Source of the DNA: Lytechinus pictus
Lineage: Eukaryota
DNA length: 64,000 bases
Assembly (NCBI RefSeq): GCF_037042905.1
Contig: NC_087251.1
Location: 31,746,001 to 31,810,000 of the forward strand
Direction: 5' to 3'
Below, piece by piece: positions 945 to 35,800 of the stretch; position 1 is the first letter of the stretch, and each line of letters opens with the position of its first letter. The position numbers and the translations under genes are program-made. The notes beneath the pieces were generated by a model. That model was not told where the DNA came from. It saw nothing but the letters and a program-made list of their open reading frames with translations, and did no database searches.

Positions 945-3900
945 AGTGTGGGATTAGCCCCTTACAGTCCAATTGTACTGGCAAAAAAATTATTGCCGCC
1001 TCTTTTCATGCTTTGTTTTCATGTCCACAATATGGATTTTGCTTTTATCGATATACTTAATCTTGTTATTTGCCCACCTTTATGGAGTATCGTTATTTTT
1101 CATCATTTGCATTTTTTATTATATCGATTTTTCTTTGGGCATCTCTCTCTCCAGTAATTATCTTTGATGTATTTTTACTGTCTTTGCTCTCTGACGCGTT
1201 CGTCCGCTCTGCCTACGAAGATTTCTGCTAAATGCTGCCCTCTCTCGAACCTTTATGAATTCGTTATTTGTTTTTATGTGTTTTTGTTTCTCTGTATCAC
1301 TGTTACTTATTTGTTCCCACACAGGACCTTTTATTTTGATTACTCTTCTGTTACTAACTCAATGCCGAAAGTAGTAGTGAATGTTGAGACGCTAACCGTA
1401 CTTCCGTGAATACTTTAACTAATATGCCGTTTTATTCTTTGAGTAATGATGACCTCTCCATTAGTTTAAATACACATAATTCAAATGGCAACCCTCAGGT
1501 TAATTTGGCGTACAACCACTTTGTAGCCAACAACATTAACGCATCATCAGAACTTCTTGATTTTCACTCTGATCATGACTTAATTCGCAATCCATCATCA
1601 GAATACATCACTGAACTTCAATTCAAAAACACTAGTAAACAATTCTCCAAAGATATTTTTTCTTTATTACATTTAAACATAAGAAGCATAAATAAACATT
1701 TCGAAGAGTTCCAACTGCTATTAGACAATAATTCATCTAGACATTCGTTTTCCATTATTGGACTTACAGAAACTTGGTTAACTGACGAATCCAATATTCC
1801 ATTTGCATTAGATCAATATGATTTTGTTTTCAATAATAGGAAAGATAGGCATGGCGGTGGTGTTGCGTTATATGTTTCCCACAATTACGAATACAAAATT
1901 CACGACGAAATCACTAATATGAATGAATATATAGAGTCACTTTTTATCGAAATCAATGTCCCAAATTCCAAAAATATAATTGTAGGTGTTATATATAGAC
2001 CACCAAATTCTAACCATAATGATTTTTTACTTCACCTTTCTAACTTAGTTAGAAATCCATTGTTGGTGAACAAAGATGTTTTTATATTAGGGGATTTTAA
2101 TATCGATATATTGAAGCATGACAGCAACAATACTGCCCATGAATTTCTTGAAACATTTTTGACTTCTTCATATTTGCCATTAATATCAAAACCCACTCGC
2201 ATTGCAGATCGCTCTGCAACCCTTATTGATAACATATTTTGTAACATCATGCCGTCTCCTGATTCTGAAATTATATTATCCGATCTGACAGATCATTTTC
2301 CCATTATGTCACATTTTCCCCTCAAACACTCGTGTATTAATCCTTCCAAGCCATCAAGGCGGAGACCTACTCCCGAGAATCTTGCAAGACTGGGTGTTTC
2401 GTTAGAGTCTGTTGACTGGTCGCCTATTTATAACAATAATGATGCAAACATATGCTTCAATAACTTTCTGAATATTTTTAACAGTGAATTAGATAAGCAT
2501 ATTCCAAAAGTAAAAGATAGACAAACTAACTACAAAAAATCACCAAGACTTCCTTGGATATCTAAAGCACTTTTGCGTTCAATTAACAGAAAAAATAATT
2601 TATATTATAATTCAAAACTTAAAGGTACTCTTCAGGCAAAAACTAAATACACCACATATAAGAATACTCTAACTATGACAATACGTTTGGCAAAGAAAAG
2701 ATATTTCACTGATCAAATAATTCTGTATAAGCACGACATTCAAAATACATGGAAAGTTCTTAAACAAGCAATGAATTTATGCAATAATAAGTCCGATATA
2801 ACTGAAATTAGGTCTAACGGTGATATCATTGGAGATCCTGAAAATATAGCTAATGTTTTTAATGATTATTTTTCATCTATAGGAATTAACCTTGCTAGAG
2901 ACATCCCCCCTTCAACAAAACATTTTTATGATTATCTAGGTACACCTAATTCTAGTTCAATATTTTTCACTCCCGTAGTCAAACAAGATATTACTGATAT
3001 TGTATCTAATTTGAATAATAAAAAAAGTCCTGGTTATGATGATGTCAATAACTTCATTTTAAAAGGTATAATATCTGAAATTGTTGATCCTTTGACATAT
3101 ATTTTTAACCTTTCTCTAACCTCTGGTCAAGTCCCTGATCACATGAAAATTGCCAAGGTCATTCCATTGTACAAAAAAGGTGACAAGTTAAGTATCAGTA
3201 ACTATCGCCCAATTTCTTTATTATCGTCCTTGTCCAAAATTTTAGAAAAAGTGGTTTATAGCAAAACAATTGATTTTTTAAAATCTCACAATATTTTTTC
3301 TAACTTTCAGTTTGGATTTAGAGAAAAACATAACACAGAACATGCATTATTGAATTTCGTTGATAAAGTGGCCCACGCTTTTGATAATTGCTCACATCTA
3401 GTCGGTATTTTTCTGGACTTCTCCAAGGCCTTCGACACCATTAACCATGATATTTTATTACATAAACTTTCTCATTATGGGGTGCGCGGGAAGGCCTTGG
3501 AGTGGTTCAGAAGCTACTTGTCTGATAGACGCCAATTTGTATCTTTGAATGGTCAGGCATCCAACATGCAATCTATTAATTGTGGAGTCCCGCAAGGCAG
3601 TTTGTTAGGCCCGTTATTATTTATCATCTATATTAATGACTTTTGTAAATCATCTGATGTCCTTTCGTTTATACTCTTTGCAGACGATTCCAATATGTTT
3701 TATTCCCATAAAAATCCATATACCTTAGTAAATACTATTAATAATGAACTTTTAAAAGTCACAGAATGGATAAGATCCAACAAATTGTCTCTTAATCTAC
3801 TTAAAACTAAATATATGCTATTTAGCAATTCCATTGATACACTTCCGATGGACATTGTTTTAGATGACACTAATTTAGAAAGTGTCACATTCATAAAATT

Positions 3901-5104
3901 TCTCGGTGTTACCGTTGATAATAAGCTTTCCTGGAAATACCACATAGATTGTACTTGTAAGATTATTTCGCGAAATATTGGCATTATCAATAAATTAAAA
4001 TATCATTTTTCGTCGTCGTCACTTTTAATGCTATATTCTTCTTTGATCCTACCTTACTTGAATTATGGGATACTTGCCTGGGGCAGCACACACCAAACCA
4101 TTTTAGATAGACTGTTGTTACTGCAAAAGAAGTCCCTTCGTATTATTCATAATTCAGCTTTTCGTTCACACACTGACCCACTATTTTTTGACAGCAAATT
4201 GCTGAAGATAAGCGACCTATACTTATTTCATTTAGGGCAATTTATGTTTAAATTTAACAAAAATATCCTTCCACGTGTATTTGATTCTATGTTTCCTCTT
4301 AATCGGTCTTTTCATAATTACCCTACGAGGCAATCTAACGAATTTCATTTACCCCGTTTTAGAACTTTATTGGCAAAGAGTACATTTATGTTCGATGGCC
4401 CTAGTTTTTGGAACTCCCTCGACAATAACATAAAAAATAGCCCTTCCATACATTCTTTTAAAAGAAAACTGAAAAACTTCTTACTTAAATCCTACCGAGG
4501 TCTTCATTACTAATTCCCGCTCGTTACCACCCCCTCTCAGACATCTAGTTATTTTTATTAGTCTTTATCATCTTGTTTTATTCTCTAATTTCGGTCGCAA
4601 TTCGTCCTGTTTCTATTTAAGTTTACTTCTCCTTTTGTCGTCCTGTTCTTGTTCTTGTTTTTTTTTTTTTTTTTCTTCGTGGTATTTTACTCTTTATTAG
4701 TTTTGTCTTGTTCTGTGTGTTATCTTGTTCTTTTTAATCTATTCAGTAAGTCTCCGTAGGCAAATAGCAACCATTGCGTCTCTCCCCCCCCCCCCTCTTT
4801 CTTTCTCTCTCTCCTCTTTTCTCTTCTTTGAGGGAGGTTCACATTATACAAGCTTTGCTTTTGAGTGAATCTCCTATTTCCACAGATACCTTTTTTTTCT
4901 ATTTGAATTATATTTTATAATTTGTCTACGAAATGCACCACATTTTGTATATATCTTTATATGTTAATTATCATGAATGTTTTTTACTATGATTATAAAG
5001 ACAATGATTTGTATCGCAAATATTTGTTACAATGTATGAAAATGATTTGTATCAATATTTATGTTATTTCTGTTGGAAATAAATCTGAATCTGAATCTGA
5101 ATCT
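945..5104 (+). mobile_element. Non-LTR retrotransposon (LINE, L2/Crack/CR1 group) in the last GNPNAT1 intron, sense orientation; 5' boundary approximate
   Basis: Contains an intact APE-RT ORF, a ~570 bp 3' UTR with a stem-loop (4833-4874), AATAAA at 5078 and an (AATCTG)n tail at 5082-5104. No ORF1 or TSD is recognisable. Confidence 0.85.
1424..4513 (+). CDS. LINE ORF2: apurinic-like endonuclease plus reverse transcriptase (~1030 aa; ORF open from 1406, first ATG at 1424)
   Basis: Endonuclease motifs HLNIRS, GLTETWL, GGGVALYV, YRPP, GDFNID, TLIDNIF and TDHFP. RT motifs YRPISLL, QFGFR, FLDFSKAFDTI, GVPQGSLLGPLLF, LFADD and KFLGV. No stops or frameshifts. Confidence 0.95.
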   Translation: MPFYSLSNDDLSISLNTHNSNGNPQVNLAYNHFVANNINASSELLDFHSDHDLIRNPSSEYITELQFKNTSKQFSKDIFSLLHLNIRSINKHFEEFQLLLDNNSSRHSFSIIGLTETWLTDESNIPFALDQYDFVFNNRKDRHGGGVALYVSHNYEYKIHDEITNMNEYIESLFIEINVPNSKNIIVGVIYRPPNSNHNDFLLHLSNLVRNPLLVNKDVFILGDFNIDILKHDSNNTAHEFLETFLTSSYLPLISKPTRIADRSATLIDNIFCNIMPSPDSEIILSDLTDHFPIMSHFPLKHSCINPSKPSRRRPTPENLARLGVSLESVDWSPIYNNNDANICFNNFLNIFNSELDKHIPKVKDRQTNYKKSPRLPWISKALLRSINRKNNLYYNSKLKGTLQAKTKYTTYKNTLTMTIRLAKKRYFTDQIILYKHDIQNTWKVLKQAMNLCNNKSDITEIRSNGDIIGDPENIANVFNDYFSSIGINLARDIPPSTKHFYDYLGTPNSSSIFFTPVVKQDITDIVSNLNNKKSPGYDDVNNFILKGIISEIVDPLTYIFNLSLTSGQVPDHMKIAKVIPLYKKGDKLSISNYRPISLLSSLSKILEKVVYSKTIDFLKSHNIFSNFQFGFREKHNTEHALLNFVDKVAHAFDNCSHLVGIFLDFSKAFDTINHDILLHKLSHYGVRGKALEWFRSYLSDRRQFVSLNGQASNMQSINCGVPQGSLLGPLLFIIYINDFCKSSDVLSFILFADDSNMFYSHKNPYTLVNTINNELLKVTEWIRSNKLSLNLLKTKYMLFSNSIDTLPMDIVLDDTNLESVTFIKFLGVTVDNKLSWKYHIDCTCKIISRNIGIINKLKYHFSSSSLLMLYSSLILPYLNYGILAWGSTHQTILDRLLLLQKKSLRIIHNSAFRSHTDPLFFDSKLLKISDLYLFHLGQFMFKFNKNILPRVFDSMFPLNRSFHNYPTRQSNEFHLPRFRTLLAKSTFMFDGPSFWNSLDNNIKNSPSIHSFKRKLKNFLLKSYRGLHY

Positions 5105-12285: not shown

Positions 12286-13444
12286 TATAACAATATATAA
12301 TAATACTAATAATACGACGTTGCTTGTATAGCGCATATCACTACCCATGGGCGTCTCTATGCGCTTAATAGGAAAATAGACAAAGAAGAGAGAGGATTAA
12401 AGCCATTATGTAGCATATAAATAGCATAAAAATATAAGAATTCAGCATGATTGCTGTTTGTGACGTGGGTCAAAATATCTTGGCACAAGCAGGTTTGAAT
12501 GCCCAATAAGCTTGTTGCAGTCATGTGATTAACAGCTCATAACAGATTACAACTACCAAAAAAATATTTCATTTTGAAAAAATATTCAATTTAATGCCTT
12601 AGTTTAATATGCAATAATGTTTGGTTTACAAGTGGCACAGCTGTTTTTTGCTACTTTATCGGGCAGTATAGTATTACACAAGCTCAGCCGCGGATCCAGC
12701 TGGATTAGAAACAATAGTTTTGAGATGCCGAATATTGTGCAAAGACAATTTGGTATGGTTTTGTGTCTAATCCAGCTAGATCCACGACTGCACAAGCTTA
12801 GAATAAATAATGACAAAAATACCTTCCCAAATCACTTCACTGACAGCTTACCTGGTGTAGAGAAGGGGAAGGAGATAATTGCATCACTTGTTTAAAATGG
12901 AGATATCTGACTGCACAGCGCACATTAATGCCTCCACCAAATCAGATACATAACACACATTCAGGGTGAATGTTAATTTTAAAACCAACAAAATTTCACA
13001 ATTTGAGAATTTTAACTTTATGATTACTGTTCCGAACTGTTCTATGAAGTGACCAAGAAATCATTGGCACCAATGTGTGTACAGATTGGACAGTGTTTGA
13101 ATTAATAAAAATACGTCATGATATGAAATGAAGCCACCTAACCAATGTGGCATTGGTAAGTTAATGACCTTTGAATAAGAATAAGAACATTGAGTTTGCA
13201 CGCTAGTATGCACGTACCAGGGCTTAAATTAATCAAGGTCATCAAAGGTCATGGCTGTGACTAGTCTTAATACCCCTCTCACAGGCCTTGATTTCTTGTG
13301 CCCTTTTGCATTGATAAAAAAATAATGCACACAAAAGCTTTTCTCCAATACAAAATTGAATCAAAAGCCTATACTGTGAAAAGTGCAATCACAAGCTCCG
13401 GTAGTGCGTTCTTAAATGCACTAGTTCAATTCATCACTCCATCC

Positions 13445-15327
13445 TCAGTGTGATTTGTACATTTCATACGTATATTCCTCCGTGTAAGTTGCGTCATATG
13501 AGACGGATATGGAGTCTATTTCAAGCGTAAACTCTCCATCCACGGCATCTCCCATAGTCAGACCAATAGCATTGACGGATTCCAAGTCCGGTGGAGTCTG
13601 CTTGTCCTGGACTCTACCTTTGCTTGACATGAAGAACTTGGTGAAAGGGATCTGCATAGGTTTGGAAAAGAAAAGGGAATCAAGAATAGGCATATGGAAA
13701 ACAGACAGAAAATCAAGGTAAATCCAATGAAACGAGTATCAGTAGAAAATCAAATTTGTTCATGGTGCTAAGTGTTGACCATTCTCATTACGTTTAACTG
13801 TAAGTATATTGAATACTTATGCTTTTCTTAGATTTTTTGCTATCTACACTGGCGGATCCAGGGGGGGGGGCACCCCCCCCCCCTTTTAAAAAGCAAAATT
13901 AAAAATTTGTAATGTAAAAATGCCATTAAAACAAAGGTGTGCCCGCTCTTGAAATTGAAGACCTTTTTTTTTTTGCTTGTCAATTTTTTGGCGGGTACGA
14001 AATATCCTTAATTTGTGGTTGAAAACATTTTTTTTTTTTGCTTGTCAAAATTTTCCTCTGAAAATTTTGCCCCCCCTTTTGGAAAATCATGGTCCGCCCC
14101 TGGCTATTTACAATTGTTTTGTACATGTCAACAGAGAACAATCTAGTGTTTAGAACACAGGACAACACTGAATTTGCATTTTAGAAAACAGAACACAAGA
14201 GATTCTAAATGAACCACAAGATGCAAATTGATATGATTTCTCTAGACACTGTGTTCAATCCTACAGCTTAAGAATATTTAATACTGATCCTTACCGTAAT
14301 ATCTTGCCAATATGGTCCACCTCGTGTGAATATGAAGTAACTCCAAACATCATCATGAGACTCTGTAAAGAAGCCCTTGATCATCAGGTTTACCATGTAA
14401 GCACGACCATCTCCTCGTACCCTCATCTTCAAGACATTGAATGGTGTTAGGTCCATTGCTTGTTTCCTATTGAAGGATTTCTGTCATGCATAAAAACCCA
14501 TAAAGGATAAAAGAATGCAAGCTCGTAATTTTGCTTAAAATACTTAATTAAAAAAATTGGTTAAAAAATGGTAAAATAAAATAATAAGAAAGCATATCTA
14601 GTCTGAAACACATTAAAGGTTTCCTAAATTAGACAAATAATTTGATCTATTGCAATTGAAAATTGTCTACCGATAACAAATAATTTTATATTCTTGTCAT
14701 ATTATACATACTTTTTACTGAATACTTTAAAGCTGTTTCAACTCCATGGAGTATAAAAAAAATCATATTCCTGCTGATATCAAGTTAACGTCTTCTTGTA
14801 AAGTGGTATATTCTACAGATTTGTTAAACATAAGAGTTTTGTTTACTCACATAAGCTTGTTTAGATCTCAAAGCACAGTATCCACTTCTTTTAGTTTCTC
14901 TATCCCTTGGAACCTCAGTGCAGAGGTTACCATGAAACAGCAGCTTATTGTTGCGACTGACAGTCAATCCTGCAGTACTTCTCCCTCCAATCTCAGCATC
15001 AGTATGGACAATAAAGTCTTCAATACTCTCAGGTCCATTAAAATGCCACAACACTCGGTTCTGGTCAAACATAGTGTCAAGGTTTGGACTTCTAATCTTA
15101 GTCCACATTTCCTCACCTAAGAGTTTCACATTCCTATTTAAGAAGGAGAAATAACCTTCTCTGCTCTTGCTTCTTTGATCTGAGCTACTCAGTCTACTAT
15201 TTGAAAGGAAAGGAATAGCTATCGATTGTCTCTGAAGATATGAGCTTTGCTTGAACTGCCAAAGTGTCCTCCACGTGTTCTCCCTCAAACGACAAACAAG
15301 ATGCTTTGGAATCATTGCCATAGTCAC
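13445..15327 (-). CDS. NDUFAF1: Complex I intermediate-associated protein 30 (CIA30), 3 coding exons: 15327-14851, 14480-14295, 13651-13445 (~289 aa)
   Basis: Spliced product has an N-terminal Arg/Ser-rich presequence-like segment, then LWHFNG, TDAEIGGRS, FHGNLCTEVP, KRSGYCALRS, MRVRGDGRAYMVNL, FTRGGPYWQ, IPFTKFFMSSKGRVQDKQ and GEFTLEIDSI. All junctions are GT-AG, phase 0. Confidence 0.93.
13847..14102. mobile_element. hAT-like MITE in an NDUFAF1 intron
   Basis: Ends CACTGGCGGATCCAGG / CATGGTCCGCCCCTG. Flanked by a near-perfect 8-bp TSD GCTATCTA / GCTATTTA. Confidence 0.7.
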
Positions 15328-17261
15328 TTAGTCACAACTTTCTACATTAAGATTGCACTAATATCACATCATCACTGCATTTATCTTCCAGAATCAGCTG
15401 ATCTCCTGTATCTGTTTGTCCTGTATGTCAGGAGAATGTTCTTTTATCTGCAAAATAAGTAGCAGGCTTAACATATAAATATGAGACAAAAAATAGACTT
15501 GTAGTAAACACTGAACAATCGTATGAATAAAATGACTTTCTGCTGATCAGAATTTCCACAAGTCAAACTAATCAAATGTTTAGCAGATCCCAATTAAATA
15601 GTGTAACTCAGATATCTATTAAATGAAATAGTAACAAAATAACAAGATATTGCAGATTACAAAAACTTTAAAGATTTGACTCAGTTTTGAAAATGAAGTT
15701 GTCAAAAAAATTACTGAAAATGAATTATGACTGTTAGTGCATGCGAAAATTGTTTCACATTGGCATTTAACAAGCACTGGACATTTAACAATGACTTCTG
15801 CCCTGGCTCTTGGCACACATGTATTTTGTATGCATGACTCAAACAAGACTGACACACAAAGATACTTTTAGAGGCCATCTGTCAAATTTTAACAAATGGG
15901 AATAATGAAGAGAGAAAATAAGGAAATTATTTGATTTTTTCTAAACTCGAAAAAATTGTTTGGAATAAAGCGATGTTTTACTTGGCCAGTATAAGCAACA
16001 AAAGAAGGAGGGTTTATAAAGTAGTGAAGAATTAGGTCTTGCATTATTTGTAACTTCCCATTAACAATACTTTAAATATTATGCTCGGAATACACAATTT
16101 TCAACATGGTTGTCATAAAAGCTCATGAAATGTTTGCTACATTAAAGAGGAAAGGGGAGCTTTTTCATTAATTTAGTTGCAAATTGTCACTCAGGAATAA
16201 TCATCAATCATTAATCTTTACTTTTTACTATTCAAACTATTCAAATTCATTGCTAGATGATCATATGAATGTGTGTGCCCTAAACAATAGATGAGAAGTA
16301 TTACACATTAAAATGTGTTTTCAATGTGCCTTCATCCATACCAGCCAATAGCTGCATCTGCAAAAAAAGTGCCAAGACAAAGTTGTAAACAACACGTCTT
16401 TCAGGGGCTCAAATACTTTTCATGGCTGCAGTTTCAGAAGCAAATTTTAATCTTTCTTGAAAAATTACAGTAGAGGCTACATGTATGTCTAATTCATATT
16501 TTGAGGTTTCAAGATCCAACAGATACAAGACCCACTTCATTCTAACACCAGCCACAACACCATACTTGAAATGAGGCTGGTGTTGGGAGTGACCTCGGAA
16601 AATATGACAAATTCCCGGCAGTTTGTGTTTAGCGCTGGTGTTGAATGTCGCCTGCTGAATAATAAGAGGCATTACAGCTGGTGTTGACTATCTTAATTTC
16701 ATGTTTGGTGTTGGTATTCGTGATTTGAAGCTCGCGAACGATGAAACATCCCAGTAATTTTTATGAACAATAATAATTTGTCTTTCAGATATTTGAAGTT
16801 ATGTTGGCCTTACTTTGCATTCTGTATGAGATTTTTATAACGCGATCGATATATCGTTCTTCTGAATCCAGCTCGGTTCAGCATTCTTTTCATGCCCTCA
16901 TCAGTCTAAACATCAACACCAGCTGACGAATGCCAAAAAAAAAAATGGCTTCAACTCAAGTCAACCCTGATGTCAACAGCAGATAGAAAACTTTGCACAT
17001 CCAAGGCAATTTAAAATTGCCTGGCCACCGGCACCGGGCACAGGCACAGTATTAAAACAAAAAAGTTCCCTATAAAGGCTATAGATACTATAATTTATAA
17101 ATACATACATGATCGCTCACAAACACAATCACTCACAAAATAAAAATGATCGGCCTTATCCTGAAATAAGTCACCTCTCTTCTCCTGTGTGCGCTTGTTG
17201 TCATGGTTGTGTACAAAGTCAATGGGAGAGGAAAGAAGTCACCTCCACTGACGAAATGAAC

Positions 17262-18732: not shown

Positions 18733-19060
18733 AAATGAACGGCAGTGAATTAAATCAAGAAAATGCCAAATGATCCCTCCGCCGGACCCCTTCGAGTCTG
18801 AGGGGAAATATTCCGACCCCCCCCCCCCCCCCCTTTCCGAGCAATAACAATAGTACATTGTCCCACATGTGCTTATCTGTGTTGGTGATCAGTCATCAGT
18901 GCAGAGCAGCGTGATCTTTTCAGCTAGTCTTCCTTAGATTTCAGCCTTTCATGTATTAACAAAGTTCAGTTAATGTACCTGTACCAGATCTAGATCCACC
19001 TACGATTATAAAGTAACAATTAACCTTGGTTTTACAGACTTTCTCATAGAGTGTTTCTGA

Positions 19061-19260
19061 ACTTACCACTTACCCAGGTCGGACGTCGGCCGGCCGCTCG
19101 GAGAGCATCTTTGCCTTTGGTACACGTACCGGTATACATCACGTACGTACATCACGTGCATTATATATATGGGAACCCATTATATTAGTATGTGAGTATA
19201 TGCCATAGAATACATCTCTATGGTATATGCATGCACCGCGACATTTCGGCCAAGCTGAGT
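19061..19260 (-). promoter_or_regulatory. Candidate non-coding first exon/promoter of NDUFAF1
   Basis: CpG-enriched patch ending, on the minus strand, in two tandem GTAAGT donors (19073-19068 and 19066-19061). A matching acceptor lies at ~15447, upstream of the NDUFAF1 ATG. Confidence 0.4.
19196..19230. mobile_element. Putative P-element-type transposon excision footprint
   Basis: GTATATGC-[CATAGAATACATCTCTATG]-GTATATGC: a 19-bp imperfect palindrome between perfect 8-bp direct repeats. Confidence 0.7.
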
Positions 19261-22257
19261 ACGGCCACAGGCAAGGTTCGAGACCAAAAGTTTTAGGGGA
19301 GCTTAGCGGTGCAACAGCCGGGGTTGGGGCAGGAGTGGCAGTCTGCCCACCCTGGCGGAGCTCACCAGGAAAAAAAACCGGGGAAAGCTAAGACAGAATT
19401 AAAGAAAATGAAAAGGAAGAAAAAGAGGAAAGAGGGGGGGGGGGGGGAGAAAGGGGAAAGAATTGAGGGGAAAAAGAAAGCCGATAAATTAAGAGAAGAA
19501 AGGTAAAACGGAAGGAAAAGGAAAAAAACACGAATAGGGGGCCTACGCGTATAGATCTAGGTATAAGAAAAAATAATCCCGAAATACTAATAAATAGGAG
19601 AGAAAGGAGAACCAAGAGATGGCCACGTGGAACGGGAATTTATGGCGGGAAAACTGAGGAGTGAGAAAAGTGACGGAAAATGAAATAGAACAATGAGGTA
19701 AGTATAGACCCCGGTACGTGGTATAGGTCTTAATATGCTCAAGCTGAATTTTTAAAAATGAAGAAAAAAATGAAGACACAGTCTGGGCTACCAAAGATTA
19801 ATAATAAATTAAAGCATGAGATGGCTTATTAATGTATGATAACTTGCTAAATGGCAATAACGATCGCAATCAGGACAATATTACAGAAGATTATTAGAGA
19901 GGTTCCATGCAGAGGTACCGTCCAAGCATTGCCTTATAAATTATGTCAATTTAATGAGGCCTACATAATTTCATTTTCATAGGGCAAAAACTCGCTCTTG
20001 ATGTTATAGAAAATTTGTTTCGTAAAACCTCCGTAAAACCTGTATACCCGCGTGATTTGATTGAAAATAGCGGCCATCAAGGTAAATGACTGAATCTATA
20101 TGGAGAGGAAGGGAGTCCCAAAAATTTCTACGACCAAGAACAAACAAGCAAAAAAAGAAAAGGAGAAAAGAAAGAAAAGCACTTAAAGGACAAGTCCACC
20201 CCACAAAAAATTTGTTTGAATAAAAAGAGAAAAATCCAACAAGCATAACACCGAAAATTTCATCAAAATCGGATATAAAATAAGAAAGTTATGACTTTTA
20301 AAAATTTTGCTTAATTTCACAAAACAGTTATAATAATATGCACGTCCTGAAAAATCCTGTTCACATTATGACCGGGATATTTTTGGCTCTTGCCCCTCCC
20401 CGGCAACCGACCCCTGTTACGCCCCGAGCTTAACTGTGCATGCCTATGAGACTTCTGCAGGGAGCTTGAGAATTTTTGACGTTGTTCATTTCAGTACATG
20501 GAAAATAGTCTATCGTAAGCAGCATGCATGGGTGAAACAGCTAAGGGTCGATCGGCGGCCGGCCGGGCCGCGGGCCGGCCGGCGCGGGGGGGGGGGGGGA
20601 GAGCCAAAAATTTCCTCCCGGTCATATCATGATGTGAACAGGATTTTTCATGATTACACGCGAGCACTATGGTGCGAGGCTCTATGTGAGAGTAGCGTTA
20701 TGAGTAAAAAGATAAAATAAGTAAAAAAATCGCAAAATCAAGCTCGAAGCACAAGCTAAATTTTTTTGGTCCCACTCACTTAAAAAAAGGACCTATCCCT
20801 GTTTGCGTGACACTTTGTGATATTTTCACCAAATAAAATATGCGAGATGAAAAATGTTAATATCCTGATATGATAAGTGGACGTTAGCATTTCTTATGAA
20901 CAGGATGGGTATCCATATATCTAAACAAAAATGCATGCGAGCGCGTTTTAATACTTTTTTGCAATTATGAAATTTATTATGCAAGATGTGTATCTCGCTA
21001 AAACAAATAATGAAAACTCGAATCATGAAAAAAAAAATTATTGTGCATATTGACTCGAACACTGGATTTTTAAGCCCCATGTTATCTTATTAAACAGATC
21101 ATTTATTTATCTAAATCAAAAGTCACTGCGAGCGCGAACAAAATTTTGAATGTTATAAAATGACCTCAATTAAAGTTTTATTTCATATTGCAGGGAACTA
21201 TACCATGACTATATGAGGAAATTTTACAAAATTTGAAGGGTGAATAGTGCTAGCTGTTGTGGATCACTTTACAGCTTAAGTGAGATGCTCATGACAGCAT
21301 TTACATTATTTCTTCAGTTTCGGAATATTCGGGGGGCCGGGCGCGGGAGCAAGTAGGGCAACGATCCTGACCCCCCCCCCTTGGTACCACCACTTACAGC
21401 ATGGTGCATGTGGCAAAAGTTTCTGAATAAAAGTCCCGGGAGAGCGAAGCGAGCGAGGTTTTCTTCTACTTTTTCATTACAAGTGATAGATTTTGACATG
21501 ATCTTATTCCTCTTTCCTGTCCATTTCTTTAATTTCTCCTTTTGTTCTTGGTCGTAGAACTTTTTGGGGCCAGTCCCCAGCAACGCCTTCCATTTTTATG
21601 CCAGTGCTGCTGGGGTCCGAGCGGAACCAGAACCTCTCGAGATTTCATTACATGAAACCTTACTTTTCAATCTGATCATATATGTTTTACAAAACGCATC
21701 ACTTCAATACAGTGGAGTAATAAACCAAACATTTGAGGGGCACAACATGTGAAATGTGGGGATATTTCTAAAACGTCACGAACGAGTTCATTACACTACC
21801 TCATTTCCCGTTTCTGTTTGTCCCTTTTCTTTCCTCTTGAGTCCTGTCATACTCGTTCCCGTTCCATTTTGCCACCTTTCTATATATTTCCCCTTTCTCA
21901 TTCATTAGTAAGTTCTTTCTCATAATCTTGTCTCTGTTTTCCTCTTTCCGCTGAAAACCTTTCCTCTCTTTATAGACTCTTTTCCCTTTCCGTTTCTTTT
22001 TCCCCTCCCTTTCCCCTTTTCCTCCATTTCCTTTCTTTCTTTCGTTTCTTTCAAAGTTTTCCCATTCTCCCCGGTTTTTTTCCCGGAGCCATGCAGGGCT
22101 GAGGGGGGCAGATCGAGGCCGCCCCCGTGCCCCTCGCCGCCTGTTACCACTAAAGAAGACAAGGAATAATATGCCTTGTTAGTTGCTATTATGTCAAAAC
22201 ACTTGTTCTCAAAAGATGTATAGCTAGGCCTACATGCATTACCTCCATGAGTATATA

Positions 22258-23129
22258 GGGGAAGGCGGGGTAAGTTGAGCATAAATTATAGGGGCAAGTT
22301 GAACCACTACCCCCAGGCCAATAATGAATGAGTCAGACACTGTGGTGTTGTCATTGTATTGATGACCCATTGCATAACCCCTAACCCCACCACAAGTTGT
22401 TTTCAACTTTGAAACAAAAAGTACTTTTTTTGAGGGAAAAATACAAATTTCAGCCAAAAAAGTAAAAAAGGGTGCGAAATAGATAAGTGCTTTTTACACA
22501 CATGCACACACGTCTTTAAATAAAATAAAGACCAAAGACTATAAAGAACAACATTGTTAGCCCAGGTATGGAGCTTCATTCTTGTCATAGTCTTTTATAA
22601 TTATGATGGATGCATAAGAAATGTGTGGAAGCGAAATTATCGCATCATGTTCGGACTGGGGTAAGTTGTGCCAGCCGACATGGGGCAAGTTGAGACATGG
22701 TAATTCTTATAATGTAGGCCTATATAAAAAACAAAAAAACCTTAAAAAGCCTTCGATATGCAGACAGAAAGGAGCAAATTTACATGACTGTTCTATTCCT
22801 TTTAGGATGTTGTTATTTATAGAGAATTAGCAAGTGAAAAGACTTTGAATAAAAAAATTAGACATGCTGGTTCTTCCCCCACACATATAGTGTTTGTGGC
22901 TCAACTTACCCCACAGATGGGGCAAGTTGAGCCATCACATCAGACAATGACTTTCAGTGTGGGGATAGAAAGTTATATATAGGTGAAAGATATTTCAGAA
23001 GAATTGAATTTTAAGGCAAGGTACTTATTTCTACAAGATTATAAATAGTATCAATTCCAACATGCAAAAAGCAAAAGGTGGCTTACCCATAGAGAGTATA
23101 CATCTCTATGGGCTTACCCCGCCATCCCC
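22258..23129. mobile_element. MITE with TA TSD and subterminal GGGG(C/T)AAGTTG repeats (Tc1/pogo-like)
   Basis: TA|GGGGAAGGCGGGGTAAG ... CTTACCCCGCCATCCCC|TA. Internal GGGGCAAGTTGA-like motifs at ~22290, 22657, 22682 and 22919. Confidence 0.75.
23080..23118. mobile_element. Putative P-element-type transposon excision footprint nested in the right end of the 22258-23129 MITE
   Basis: GGCTTACC-[CATAGAGAGTATACATCTCTATG]-GGCTTACC: a 23-bp imperfect palindrome between perfect 8-bp direct repeats. Confidence 0.75.
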
Positions 23130-23817
23130 TATATACGGATCTTGTTCATAAAAGAAAGGATCGCGTTGCCCCGCGTTGACAATGCAAGCTTTTACCGTGT
23201 CGCAAAAGGTGGGACGAATGCCTGATACGATATTTCTGATGGACGACGAGTTACACTCATTGTAGAAATGGAAATGGCAGGAGCAAAGTCAAATCGTCGT
23301 ACTCTCTCCAAAGTCTCAACTTATTTTTCATATTTTCTTTGTCAGTTTTCTTAATATTGGCATACTGACGCGATCATGGCGGCTTAAAGAATCACAGTCG
23401 GCGGAAAGTCCTTCGAGAGGATTGTTTATTCCAACTCTAAATAGAATTCGCCGAACTGTTTAATAAATAAGCCTAGGCTTCACGTCTTACGACATCACTC
23501 GCAAGTCGCAGTCGATCGGAGTGTGCAATAGCCAATAAACTGGGAGGAGCTGCCTATCCGTCCGTCCAGCCAGGTTGTGTGCATTGAAGTTTGAACTCAG
23601 CCACATCTTTTTGGGGTGCTAATTCGCTTTGCTGTCCTTGGCCCTTGGCTGTGTAGTGTAGACCCTTCAGAAAAGACGCAGGATCTAATTGGGTGTACCA
23701 TACAGTACAGGCTTAAAATCTACTCCATCAAGGATCAAGGCACTAGGCCTAGTCAGCAATAATAATTTGTCATTGAGTCATTTGTAAATTAAAACAATCC
23801 CAGATCACATCCACACA

Positions 23818-26669
23818 ATGTCAAAAGCTACCAAACGCAAACATGTAACAAGAGAGGTTCTGGAAGATTATATTTTGCCAGAGGAAAATCAACAAATTTT
23901 GAAGGTTAGTAGTAAAAGTAGAGTCTTAAACTTTCACTTGGCCTAGACTTGGTCATGTTGGTCTTGGAAGTTTCGCTTGGCCATGAAACTTTTAATGAAA
24001 TGGCTCAGTCAGTGAGCACATCTCATGCTTGAGTAAACACCAAACTTCAAAGTCAAACCTTGTTTTCTCCTTATTCTTTGGAGCACTCAGTGTTACATTC
24101 AATCAAATATTTATTTTGGTTATTGATCAATTTTCATCTTAGTTAAAAGTTAAAGGTAAAAGACAGTAGGGCCTACCAATTGGCAATAGTTGCAGCAAAC
24201 AATTATTTCATGAGAAAGTCTTTTAATCAAGGTTAATTGTCAAGATATTATCAATTAAATCTAGATCTGGGATCTGTTTCATAAAACTTGTTACAATAAC
24301 AAATTTACAAGAACAGTTAAAAGCTACTGAAATCCTTTAATCTGATTGGCTGATGGTAAATTTGTTATAGAAACTCTGCATTTGTTGCAACAAATCGTAA
24401 TGAAACAGGACCCAGGTAGATCTACTTTATGTAAACTTATCTTTGTAAAAATCATGAAATCAATGGCTCAAAATCGATAATTCTGATGATTACTAACACA
24501 GAAAAGCTATGTGGGAGAGTGTATTAATATTGCTTCGAAAAATACCCAGCATTTGATGGAATTCCATGCTTATTTTGCTCATTTCTCAGCAATTAACACA
24601 TTATCTTCCAGAGGCACATATTTTTTTATTTATACATATACAAACACTTGGGTGGTAATTTCTATTGATTTTGTTCGAACTTGTTTTGAAAAAGCTACCA
24701 CAACTGGTATTTATCTTTAAAGCTTAGAATGTGCTTTTTCAAGCTCAATAATAATCTAAAAATTCATCAGGGGTGATTTTTTGTTGGTGTTGGGGTGGCA
24801 GGCAGGTCACAGTTGATCTCAAGTTGGAAAAAGTGATGCATTTTGGAAGTGGTTGAATTTCTAAAACGTGACCAATAAATAGATGCTGTATTCAACTTTT
24901 AAATTGATAATTTCCTACTGTTGAAATAATTACAAACTTGTTTAAAAAAACACTCAATTTAATTTAATCATTTGTGATTTGCTTTTGCAGATACTTGGAG
25001 GAAGAGGAAACAATCTTCATGAAGCTCAGACATCTGAAGGAGATAAATTCCTGATCAGTATGCCAACCAGGTTTAGGAAAAATGTCTGGATAAAAAGGGG
25101 TAAAAGAAATATTCTATCAGTCATTTTCTGGATTAAGTGTTGAAAATTATTGGCATCAATGTCTCCTTATCAGACAAAATAGCTTTTTGCAAAACTCTTT
25201 TCATACAATATCTGTCATTTTCCCAAAAATGTTAACCTGTAGAAACAATATAAAGTATATTACAAAATACAAAGTATATTGCAATTGATAATGCACTTGC
25301 CCTGCATGCATGGACATTATCACTTGAAATAACTAAACTGCATGTGCACGGACCAAACATGTTCACAAGGAGTGAGTTCATAAAATGATGATAAATGTGC
25401 TTTTTTTTTTAAATTTGATTACATGTAGGTGACTTTGTGCTTGCTGACCCTATTCTAGAAGGTGATAAAGTGAAGGCTGAGATTGTTGCAATTCTCTACC
25501 CTAAGCAGATCAAATATATCAAACAAGAACAACTATGGTAGGTATATGCAGGTCCATGGTATATGTAATTTACACATTATGCACTTATACCAAGTCTCCC
25601 CAAAGTGAACATTTTTTTAAAGGTTCCTTGGGGTGCAGGGTGAATTTGCCCCTGTAATGCCTAAAAGATCCCCGGAAACTAATACAATATCACAAAGCAA
25701 CAATGTCCCGATAGTATTAGTTGAATAATTTATATGTTTTATGGCTTGGATTGGCTTTTCAGGGATAAAATAACGGGGGTGCAGTAGTCTGCTGGGCAAA
25801 CCCTTCACTCGAGTTAAGGGTCTGAATGTGCAGCCTACTCATGCCTTGTGTACTGAAGGCTCTCTCGCAAGTTTTGTATGTGCTAGTCTTTGCGTGGAGG
25901 CACACTTGTTGATCAAAGTTCCAATCAGGGTCTGTGCCTGCAGACTAGGGGTGCAGAGTGAATTCGCTCCTGAATGCCCCAAAGAGCCCAGATAACTGTA
26001 ATACAACATCACAAAGCAACATAGTCCTGGGGCCCGTCTTACAAAGAGTTGCGATTGATCCGATTAATCGTAACTATGGAAAGCCAGCAAAGTCAACATA
26101 TAAAATGCATGTTTGTCCAAAAGATTTTCTAGATATGAATGTATATCCATGAATTTATTGATTTCTTGACCATTTGGTGTGTTCTCCTTTGTTTACAAAG
26201 GAAATTTTGCAAATTTCTTGTAGAAAAAATTATGGCACTGATGGATTTCCATAGAGTTACGATTGCTTGGATCAATCGTAACTCTTTGTAAGACGGGGCC
26301 CTAATAGTATTAGTTGCATAATTGATACCTTTGGATTCTCATTGTGTTACTAGGCCTCAAGGTTTTGTCACAGGAGCCAGTGAGATTAGGAATCAAAACC
26401 CAGAAGGCACTGAAGTAGAGGCCTTGACCAACCAGCTCAATGATGCATCCATAGCTGACAGAGATGTAGAGGAGAATAACGGGATCTCTGATGGAGAAGA
26501 GGATTATAGTAGTGAAGACAATGATGATGACTTGTTTGTCAATACAAACAGACCCACAGTTACATATTATTATTCAGATAGTTCAGAAGAAGACGAGGAA
26601 GAGGAGGAAGACGATTGTGAGGGGGAGGTTCAAGAGGTAACAGATGAAGATCATAGTGCGGACCGATAG
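23818..26669 (+). CDS. EIF1AD: Probable RNA-binding protein EIF1AD, 4 coding exons: 23818-23904, 24991-25099, 25429-25537, 26354-26669 (~206 aa)
   Basis: MSKATKRKHVTREVLEDYILPEENQQILK/ILGGRGNNLHEAQ...LISMPTRFRKNVWIKRG/DFVLADPILEGDKVKAEIV...QLW/P, then an acidic tail with DDLFVNTNR. GT-AG junctions are in phase. Confidence 0.95.
24150..24720. mobile_element. TTAA-flanked non-autonomous element (Kolobok-like) with nested Harbinger-like MITE (24269-24413); second copy at ~63306-63714
   Basis: TTAAAGGTAAA...AGTTGCAG ... CAACTGGTATTTATCTTTAA. Colinear with 63306-63714, which lacks the GGGATCTGTTTCATAA...TGAAACAGGACCC insert. Confidence 0.7.
26029..26301. mobile_element. Palindromic MITE (Harbinger-like) in EIF1AD intron 3
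   Basis: GGGGCCCGTCTTACAAAGAGTTGCGATTGATCC ... GGATCAATCGTAACTCTTTGTAAGACGGGGCCC. Confidence 0.8.
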
Positions 26670-32800: not shown

Positions 32801-35800
32801 TAATCATACAAGCAGAAAGACAATTTCCCTGGATCTCCCTTCTTGTATATATATCCTAATCTCCAATCTTTGCACCAAATTTCTTGGACACTATCCCTTA
32901 TCTTAATCCAATAAGAATTGCACCAAAGGGCAGTACATACATCTCTATCTGCTGACATTATTTATATACAATTTACAAAATGAAGCAACTGAACATTAAA
33001 AAAACAACACAATATAAAACAATGTTTTTGGGGGAAAAAAATACATACCTACTCACAAGTAACATGTTATAAAGGTGATCATCTCTCCGGGGAGATCTGG
33101 GTATATACATGTCCAGGTTGACCCCATGGAAAAAGTATAATGCAAATTTTCAAAGGATGAAAAGCAGGAGTGATTAATCATACATAACGAGACATGCTGC
33201 TTCATCACCCCCACCCTTCTCCATTTCTTCAACTGTAATGAAAAAAAGATGAACGCTATTTTATAATTATACAGTCATTTTCTACATATGATTTAGTAAG
33301 GGACACTACCATTCATTACATTACATTACAACTTTCTAAACCTTAAATAACTTTATTAATAACAAATTGAAGGGTTGTTTTTCATATTGATCCCCTTGAC
33401 ATTATAGATCAAGTCACCCCACAAAAACTGTGATTTGAATCAATTGAGAAAAATCAAACAAGCATAACACTGAAAATTTCATCAAAATCAGTTGTAAATT
33501 AAGAAAGTTATGATATTTTAAAGTTTTGCTTTTTTTACATATCATTTATATGCACGATGCAGTGATATGCAAATGGGAGAGTCTATGATGTCGCTCACTC
33601 AATATTTCATTTGTTTTTTTGTTGTTTGAATTCTACAATATTTCACTTCTTACAGATTTGACAATGTGGACCAATATGACTGAACTATAACATGTTAAAA
33701 CAATGGTAATTCCACATGTTAAGGGAGGAATAAAACTTTGTTTCAAAGGTCAATGAGGAGAAAATTAGAATACTTCATATTTCATATAAAAATTCATAAG
33801 AAATAGTGAGTGAGTGACATCATCAGTCCCCTCATTTGCATACAGATCAGGATGTGCATGCAACTGATTTGTGAAATTAAGCGAAAATTTAAAATGTCAT
33901 AACTTTCTTATTTTACATCTGATTTTGATGAAATTTCCGGTGTTATGCTTGTTGGATTTGTTTTTTTCTTCAAATCAACTTTTTGTTGAGGGTGGACTTG
34001 TCCTTCATTGACAAATTTTCCAAGAGTGATGTACTAAAAGCTTATATTTTTAGCAAGAAATGTGCGGGCATAAAAAATACATGCATTGATAATGTCTAAT
34101 GGGAGTTGTGCAGTTCAGATTAAAAAAGTACATAAGAAGATCAATTTACATTGTATCATCTGGGAAGATTGAGTGAATTAGCGATAGTTTGAAGGTGCAA
34201 TTAGAAGCATCATCATATGTATAGATCCATATTGAAACATACATGATTGATATTATGGCAAGTGTGCAAAAAGAGAAATCAGAAAGTTCTAAAACACCAT
34301 ATATTGCACTCACTATAGAAATTCTTCTACCAGGAAAATACAAAATTTTATGAGGCAAGAGTAGATAAACAGGTAGCCCTGACATGTTTTGTAAGCTAGA
34401 TGGCATGTCTTTCGAAAATAGGCAAGAGCCTCAACAGAACCACATTTGCGTCTCTAATACATTGATAGAACTCAATTCATAACAGAATCTTTTAAAGGCT
34501 ATTCACACAAAAGATTTAACAAACATAGGACTGAGATAGGTCACAGTATATCATCACTTACAGTTCAATTAAATTATGTAATTCAAATCACTTACAATGA
34601 TAGATAAGGAGAAAACAAATTTATGAAAGCATATATGTGCCAAGAATCTTCCCATGCACAGAACTATAAAGACATTAAAAGATTCTGCAAATCACATGAT
34701 GTAAATGGGATTAAAATTTAAATAAAATAGAGCAAATCTACCATTGGTATGTCATTTGTCTTTATATGAACCAAATTCTTACTTTTTAGAGTAAAAAAAT
34801 TACATTTTTTATTAAATAAAAATAAAAACAGTATTAAAAAAATGAAAATGCAGGCAGTGCACATTAATTTGACCATTGATACTTGGTAGAAAGTACTAGT
34901 AGCCAATTTCCCCAATTAAATATTGTTTGTAGACGTTAATTGTAATAAGAAATAACAGTAAACAATATTAGGTAACTGAAACCTGATTCTCTTTAATAAT
35001 GTATTAATTAATTCCGGCTATCATTCACAGAAATTCTAGTCCATTTTCACAACATGAGAGTGATTTTGTACTCAGAGAGTGGTTAGCAAACCTGTTCATT
35101 TACAAGAATTATACCCTCAGTTAAGTTGAATGGAAAATGATATACCCTCATCATTCAGAATTCCAGTGTCTTTATCCAAAGTAATACTATCAAAGCAAGT
35201 TTAATTTGCATCTTTAGCATTCATGACTTAAGACATCCCTATATTTCTGATGCAATTCCCCCTTTTTTTTTTTTACAACATCTCCACAAGATTGTTAGTT
35301 GTGTTACATATCATATTGCAATGCAAGTTCTTGTCGTAGGTCAGTTACAAGTACATCTGTATTTACACTTAACACAAAATACATACAAACAAAACTTGTA
35401 AGTCATCATGGCAAGAGTAAGAGAAAGTCCTATTATTTCAAGAAAACAGAGAGGAAATACAGAAAATGCAGTGCTAAAAGTCCTCCCAACCCCCAATAAA
35501 TAACCCACACTCGATAAAAAGATATCCTCCTTCCAATTCTTCTGCCACTACTCTGAACGAAATATATTCATATTTATAGATTTATATATATATAATATAT
35601 ATATATATATATTATAATGCTATATACACATTGGCATACTTATTATGTAGTCACATCTCTGCCTCCCCCATTATGTACAAACAGTTTACATAACATGTTC
35701 TAAACGCGTCCTCAGCGGTATGTGTATGAAACGTCAGTGTCAGTTTTTGTTAGCGGTAAATTGTGATCTGCCAAGTCAGAGAATTGAAAAGGTTCTGGAA

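Follow-up and report, generated by a model that had tools for sequence, protein, structure and literature searches.

To our knowledge, the Drosophila P transposase is the only well-studied enzyme that leaves single-stranded tails of terminal inverted repeat (TIR) sequence at the ends of the break from which an element has been cut, and it is the only P transposase whose cut has been mapped so far. Excision of hAT elements proceeds through hairpins on the flanking DNA, and the resulting footprints carry no TIR remnants; footprints of Tc1/mariner elements consist of the TA target and remnants of 2-3 nt. Work on the P element describes a transposase that cuts one strand, the 3′, at the tip of the element and the other, the 5′, at 17 nt into its 31-bp TIR, 8-bp target duplications, and an excision break that is repaired via homologous recombination or end joining (PMC7776569, PMC10983969). 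In zebrafish Pdre2 the TIRs are 13 bp long and enclose the intact gene. A single intact transposase gene may serve a whole family of such elements (PMC7776569).

The window analyzed here is a stretch of 64,000 nt from the sea urchin Lytechinus pictus (NC_087251.1, positions 31,746,001 to 31,810,000); it corresponds to C7:31746001-31810000 of the 812-Mb assembly in which the genome-wide counts were taken, and positions given without a contig name are those of the window. At 19196-19230, close to the first exon of an NDUFAF1-type gene, an 8-bp target duplication surrounds 6 nt and 13 nt of two transposon ends, a structure that is most likely (with a probability of roughly 0.8) an excision scar left after the break was rejoined. 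Excision footprints are a known kind of feature; this one is ordinary in its genome, one among several hundred, and nothing points to a function of its own.

The family from which the remnants derive resembles the Drosophila P element in its 8-bp duplications, TIRs of about 30 bp, CAT...ATG tips, and non-autonomous copies around 2.9 kb and below; its donor sites retain both target copies together with TIR-derived remnants, as the staggered cut and end joining described for the P element predict (PMC7776569, PMC10983969). It differs from the P element in depth, with a 17-nt stagger there and remnants limited to 24-26 nt per end here, and in that no transposase is linked to it; the Drosophila repair products are experimental, whereas those of the sea urchin are relics in the germline, fixed or still segregating, as seen in its genome sequence. 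Like zebrafish Pdre2/THAP9, the family is a P-like element of a non-insect animal, makes 8-bp duplications, and includes many copies with internal deletions; one intact THAP9-type open reading frame (ORF) is present in the sea-urchin genome too, but, unlike that of Pdre2, it has no detectable TIRs or duplication. The relic as such, a duplicated target with a few terminal nucleotides, is like that of Tc1/mariner elements, but the target here is 8 bp rather than TA, and the remnants reach 24 nt rather than 2-3 nt.

A Probable Excision Scar and Its Sister

The target-site duplication, GTATATGC, occupies 19196-19203 on the left and 19223-19230 on the right (no strand assigned), as read directly from the window letters and found in a direct-repeat search. 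Between the two copies lie CATAGA (19204-19209, plus strand), equal to positions 1-6 of the TIR as taken from long copies of the family, and ATACATCTCTATG (19210-19222, minus strand), the reverse complement of TIR positions 1-13 and an exact match to that 13-mer; the two remnants were also recovered, at C7:31765204-31765222, in the genome-wide scan for short scars described below. A repeat finder reported 19196-19230 as an 8-nt direct repeat with a 12-nt inverted repeat of 92% complementarity. As in an excision footprint, both copies of GTATATGC abut a remnant without a spacer, and what they enclose is the outermost bases of both element ends, correctly oriented; the 6-nt and 13-nt remnants meet without a shared base. 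The earlier note had proposed precisely this arrangement, which agrees to the base with the window letters.

The structure lies within 301 bases that occur only once in the genome, so the event took place at 19196-19230 itself and was not brought in by another repeat. The 19-nt core (19204-19222) is unique among the 100 of 136 short-scar matches listed. A loose scan of the window alone, for the 13-mer with up to two mismatches, is not significant (six matches against 2.44 expected, with six reached in 5 of 100 shuffles). Two of these matches are exact, each abutted by a perfect 8-nt direct repeat; the remaining four carry mismatches, and the one inspected (32937-32949) has no flanking repeat. 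The case for more than chance rests on the two exact matches, the perfect flanking 8-mers, and the genome-wide counts set against a control.

A sister scar is found at 23080-23118 (no strand assigned), where the window letters read GGCTTACC (23080-23087), CATAGAGA (23088-23095), GTATACATCTCTATG (23096-23110), and GGCTTACC again (23111-23118); the short-scar scan places it at C7:31769088-31769110. Its remnants measure 8 and 15 nt, or 7 and 16 nt with one shared A at the junction, and its 23-nt core was found once more, at C8:4390712, among the short-scar matches listed. Both scars had been attributed to a single TIR family, and this is borne out, since the remnants at 19196-19230 and 23080-23118 are the tips of a family with long copies ending CATAGAGATGTATACTA...ACGCTAGAG. 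They had also been taken for separate events; in keeping with this, the two differ in their 8-bp duplications and in the lengths of their remnants, and the perfect duplications of scars fetched from across the genome are likewise all different except for one site used twice.

These are the only scars in the 264 kb around the window, and they lie 3.9 kb apart; the pair may reflect a local hop or a common preference for open promoters. No resident copy of the family was found within the same 264 kb, and no occupied allele of 19196-19230 was seen in those surroundings or in the sequencing runs examined. An exact TIR 13-mer at C7:31908788, 99 kb past the end of the window, has no recognizable partner or duplication and may be a decayed scar or a chance match.

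The Scars in Relation to Genes and CpG-Rich DNA

Three minus-strand ORFs at 13448-15327, among them 14271-14483 and 13448-13738, match Pfam CIA30 (NDUFAF1 family). The second exon of this gene (14851-15447, minus strand; X4 record 17, X1 record 3) contains the start codon ATG at 15321, and further exons at 14295-14480 and 13397-13651, also on the minus strand, are given by a spliced, RNA-type contig (X4 record 17). Contigs of two studies stop at 15448, and this position was considered as the transcript start; it was ruled out by an upstream exon and by the splice acceptor that the minus strand forms there, ttattttgcag followed by ATAAAAGAAC.

The upstream exon comes from run X7. Two RNA-type contigs of 51 nt with a depth of 3-4 align from 19103 down to 19070 or 19063, with one mismatch each, and the loose letters of X7 records 9 and 10 are, in reverse complement, AAGAACATTCTCCTGAC, the start of the next CIA30 exon. 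Exon 1 thus ends at 19074 or 19067, with GTAAGT next in both cases, and is spliced to 15447; the two donors are 7 nt apart. Its minimal extent is 19067-19128 (minus strand, non-coding), X7 records 9-12 covering 19063-19128. A first-exon donor some 130 bp from the scar had been a candidate in the earlier note; the contigs joining 19074 or 19067 to the next exon establish that the donor is real, with the scar 122 nt upstream of it. The first exon of this NDUFAF1-type gene is situated 3.6 kb upstream of the second. A short upstream frame of 12 codons begins with an ATG at 19103 and stops just past the splice.

The sister scar is near a divergent neighbor, the first exon of which (23227-23902, plus strand; X4 record 18, X1 record 8) contains an ATG at 23818 that begins the ORF 23818-23946; an eIF-1a domain is encoded at 24946-25140. 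The scar precedes the furthest RNA contig of this gene (23227) by about 110 nt, and adjoins a CpG-rich patch with an observed/expected ratio of 1.42 in 23119-23300. Around the scar at 19196-19230, which had likewise been placed in a CpG-rich patch, the ratio is 1.06 and GC content 50% in 19060-19330, as against 0.49 and 35% for the window, so the description was apt.

A peak of CpG content at 39 scars elsewhere was not detected: the median ratio is 0.85 within 250 bp and 0.73 at 1.25-1.5 kb (Wilcoxon p=0.22). At both distances these values exceed those of three convenience backgrounds, which are not random samples (medians 0.40-0.63), a hint, at most, that scars are enriched in CpG-rich DNA. 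Elsewhere in the window, a 1,041-amino acid frame at 1388-4510 (plus strand) with reverse-transcriptase and endonuclease/exonuclease/phosphatase domains represents a LINE-type retroelement.

Alleles and a Related Species

The earlier note had expected the ancestral allele at the orthologous site to show a single target copy. What bears on this is one 150-nt contig (record 5 of run X13) from a second organism, whose DNA runs X9, X10, and X13 supply contigs for the flanks, mostly less than 95% identical to the window. The contig, less than 90% identical, aligns to 19224-19340; the 28 letters to the left of 19224, GTATATAGCTAGCGTATGATGAGTTCAT, lack the CTCTATG remnant and, compared by eye in this single diverged contig, resemble the window to the left of the first target copy (TATATTAG..TATGTGAG). 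By eye it looks as an unoccupied site would, with one 8-mer and TATGTGC at its end.

Within the species of the window, a 398-nt contig (X7 record 13) spans 19099-19352 with seven mismatches and 38 gap positions; dips in depth show that it lacks about 29 letters of the window between 19164 and 19228, and it shares the change A19227G with the related species. It may come from a haplotype in which the scar is absent or of a different form. Past 19352 the same contig continues for 164 letters that are unlike the window, and the purine-rich, low-complexity sequence at 19353-19540, which includes a G run, may differ between haplotypes.

A Transposon Family and Its Long Copies

The termini belong to a cut-and-paste transposon that is abundant in the genome. 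The terminal 15-mer CATAGAGATGTATAC has 519 forward and 530 reverse matches (1,049) in the 812-Mb genome, against 0 and 1 for a reversed control, and the 29-nt terminus pattern CATAGAGATGTATACTA-NNN-ACGCTAGAG has 260 matches in the whole genome, against 0 for its control. The family TIR is imperfect, about 29-33 bp, and starts with CATAG. Thirteen long copies were read, of 1.27, 2.7, 2.9, 3.3-3.8, and 5.9 kb; all 13 are bounded by perfect 8-bp target duplications, each different. Copies within one subfamily are 99.0-99.3% identical over 2.9 kb, and those of different subfamilies 74-85%. Two features of the P superfamily are seen in these data: duplications of 7-8 bp, in 13 of 13 long copies and in 14 of 15 and 17 of 24 scars of the two sets described below, and TIRs of 13-31 bp, compared with about 29-33 bp here.

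Coding capacity is slight, with no ORF longer than 159 amino acids in the long copies. No Pfam hit at E<=0.001 was obtained with 65 ORFs (at least 42 amino acids) of two subfamilies, and a tblastn search of the family copies with a P-type transposase protein gave nothing below E 0.09. The absence of longer ORFs and of any Pfam or P-type match, combined with identities of up to 99.3%, shows the copies seen to be non-autonomous yet recently mobile. The TIR string, searched in full-text literature, matched only unrelated virus work, and the family appears undescribed in the portion of the literature that the search reached.

One full 2.9-kb copy (L036, C2:17472177-17475112) is followed, after its target duplication, by an extra 18-nt remnant of a right end; it may have re-entered an older scar. 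By eye, the motif GCGTACTT in another copy (L031, C1:16958161-16961073) starts at position 50 from one tip and position 31 from the other, an unequal spacing that recalls the transposase-binding sites of the P element; the sites here are putative, being read from sequence.

A source of transposase was sought among P-type genes. The domain PF12017 has eight matches in the genome. An intact 817-amino acid ORF (C12:261277-263727; L045, L068), which has 57 protein matches in the genome, contains every domain expected of the P/THAP9 type (HTH, RNase H N and C, GTP-binding insertion domain, and THAP9 C-terminal domain), with a THAP-like exon upstream. No TIR and target duplication were found around this ORF; it may be a domesticated gene or a source acting in trans. 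The family TIR, with up to three mismatches, occurs at none of about 34 P-type loci fetched (30 of the 57 protein matches included), nor in the 1.5-kb flanks of the best 30 of 62 loci with the hAT-dimerisation domain PF05699.

Other candidates were set aside. A TIR-like word with two mismatches is found 400 bp away from the P-type fragment at C7:9859532, but it is unpartnered and falls within an intron of another gene. Two 959-amino acid P-like ORFs are part of a duplication rather than a bounded element: C21:9240000-9259999 and C4:26162200-26182199 are 99.5% identical over more than 20 kb, the 959-amino acid frame included, and are a segmental duplication or an assembly duplicate. Long or oversized copies of the family itself contain only nested LTR-retroelement or other inserts. 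A coding copy may exist, 100 of the 260 29-nt termini having been listed. Because no transposase is tied to the family, we infer its superfamily and the staggered cut from the scars alone.

Scars across the Genome

About three quarters of the 15-mer termini are tiny scars, each with its own duplication, and only 260 of the 1,049 run on into the 29-nt terminus. Among the first 30 matches on contig 1, three (L004, L020, and L021) are ends of long elements, most others are structures of 24-63 bp between duplicated 8-mers, and eight are one scar-like sequence inside another repeat. This 36-nt sequence, found between TCTTCAAC repeats at at least eight loci of contig 1 (L001, L006, L009, L012, L019, L022, L026, and L027), seems to be an old scar copied with its host repeat.

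Both 15-mers are found no more than 30 nt apart at 58 loci in the genome; perfect 8-bp duplications, all different, flank 14 of the 15 that were fetched. The short-scar pattern CATAG-N(0-10)-TACATCTCTATG gave 75 and 61 matches on the two strands (136), both window scars included, against 0 and 0 for the control. Twenty-four of these were fetched; 17 have perfect duplications, three have one mismatch, and four have five or more. The duplications of the fetched scars are all different except for one target hit twice.

A target with the same flanks, TCCTTGCC, was used at least three times, by a long copy (L004) and by two different scars of 22 and 26 nt (L138 and L158), which suggests a hot spot within repeated sequence. 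Scars nested in scars occur at C5:8382065, C5:8383765, C20:183884, and C16:22372438, where a second element of the family entered an existing scar and left again; one nested form of 65 nt is present three times. Searches of the full-text literature returned, at the level of abstracts, no papers on such excision scars in sea urchins.

Size Limit and Junctions

The lengths of scars containing both 15-mers, in 50 listed loci of the 58, are 32 nt (n=6), 34 (2), 35 (2), 36 (5), 37 (2), 38 (1), 39 (6), 40 (1), 42 (2), 44 (12), 45 (2), 46 (6), and 54-55 nt (3). Forty-seven of the 50 thus fall at 32-46 nt and none at 47-53 nt, and the three loci of 54-55 nt either contain an internal duplication of 9 or 11 nt or represent one scar nested within another. 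Only five loci have the 15-mers spaced 31-60 nt apart, all composites of two scars; simple scars of 61-90 nt were absent from the spacing search of the genome, and the size class above the scars is that of elements of at least 1.27 kb. A genome-wide search for at least 27 nt of one terminus, with at least 11 nt of the other coming no more than 30 nt later, found no locus, although the TIR has at positions 24-27 a 4-nt palindrome, CTAG, that would be well suited to joining. The full 24 nt per end is reached in 11 of the 50 listed loci, one to three of which might be read as 26 nt.

Junctions of the recurrent forms fall at small palindromes: TA within GTAC in the 22-nt scar, GTATAC in the 24-nt scar, TA in the 32-nt scar, AATT in the 36-nt scar, CG in the 44-nt scar, and GC in the 46-nt scar. 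A fixed maximum remnant and palindromic junctions are what is expected of flanks that each end in a single-stranded tail with the same TIR sequence, since such tails, being identical, can pair with each other only at palindromes. The repair by end joining that the earlier note had suggested is consistent with these junctions and with the sharp size limit, which fit joined cut ends. If so, the cut would be bracketed at 24-26 nt inside the element end, and the family would be P-like with a deeper cut, at about 24-26 nt.

Origin of the Scars

As we envisage the process, the enzyme of the element would cut the transferred strand at the tip of the element and the other strand some 24-26 nt inside it, so that each flank would keep a single-stranded tail of TIR sequence. 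End joining could then follow two routes. The two identical tails may pair at small palindromes, giving the recurrent scars of 24, 32, 36, 44, and 46 nt; or they may be trimmed first, giving short, unequal remnants such as the 6 and 13 nt at 19196 and the 8 and 15 nt at 23088. At 19196-19230 this would have lengthened the promoter or 5′ leader of the NDUFAF1-type gene, a housekeeping gene, by 27 bp, made up of 19 nt of remnants and one copy of the target.

The superfamily assignment itself can be questioned, as 8-bp target duplications and cut-and-paste movement are equally characteristic of hAT elements (Ac/Ds, hobo, Hermes, and Tol2) and no P-type transposase is linked to the family; many duplications also seem, on an impression by eye, to begin with G and end with C, although G...C-type 8-bp targets fit the preferences of hAT and P elements alike. 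It is nevertheless unlikely that the family is hAT, or of another superfamily with 8-bp duplications, and that the scars formed in some other way: hAT hairpins on flanking DNA leave footprints free of TIR sequence, whereas scars here regularly retain up to 24 nt of it; a TIR of about 29-33 bp starting CATAG is unlike the ends of hAT elements, which are short and of the YARNG type; and no hAT-dimerisation transposase was found between family TIRs at the best 30 of 62 loci, none of which has the TIR at up to three mismatches. Rather improbable, too, is abortive gap repair, in which the break is refilled from a sister or homologous copy, synthesis stops after a few bases, and the nascent strands are joined, with no need of a staggered cut. 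Internally deleted P and Ac/Ds elements arise in this way, and some scars here do contain templated duplications or filler (the 55-nt forms; poly-T filler in L007) typical of synthesis-dependent joining. Random stopping predicts a continuum of sizes, however, and the size distribution is discontinuous: 47 of 50 listed scars are no longer than 46 nt, simple forms of 61-90 nt are absent, no remnant of 27 nt or more stands beside the other end, and the next size class begins at 1.27 kb.

Two further readings dispense with excision. The insertion of a ready-made 19-bp unit, a tiny MITE making its 8-bp duplication on arrival, would look identical in one genome, and both the 24-nt palindrome and a 44-nt form recur, each at no fewer than 10 listed loci with different duplications. 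The recurrent forms, however, are exactly those predicted from pairing at TIR palindromes; dozens of other forms are seen once or twice, the 19-nt form being unique among the 100 of 136 matches listed; scars mix left and right TIR subtypes of different long subfamilies; and six nucleotides of one end would be an unlikely substrate, so that we regard such a micro-element as very improbable. Least credible by far is a chance palindrome or conserved transcription-factor site with a direct repeat of low-complexity sequence. The promoter-like, CpG-rich setting and the non-significant loose 13-mer scan would suit it, but the structure matches the termini of an abundant transposon exactly, perfect 8-mers flank it, hundreds of similar structures occur elsewhere in the genome, and the contig of the related species lacks the core. 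Excision followed by rejoining of the break remains the reading we prefer.

Implications

A wider picture can be sketched only tentatively, at somewhat less than even odds: a P-like enzyme with its cut in the non-transferred strand 24-26 nt from the element tip (against 17 nt in Drosophila) would account for germline excision scars numbering on the order of a thousand and concentrated in CpG-rich, probably unmethylated DNA like the two promoters described here, and the pair 3.9 kb apart would be the product of a local hop. If the size limit of the scars reflects the position of the cut, the cleavage geometry of a transposase can be read from sequence alone and compared with that of the P-type enzyme studied biochemically; should the deeper cut prove real, it would be a variation on P-type chemistry.

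For the sea-urchin genome, the scar record marks former transposon sites, and can be used in dating activity and in finding insertion preferences, here for CpG-rich, promoter-like DNA. Such scars help to explain small promoter indels between sea-urchin haplotypes and species, and the structure at 19196-19230 is of value as a clean, verifiable example of this genome-wide record.
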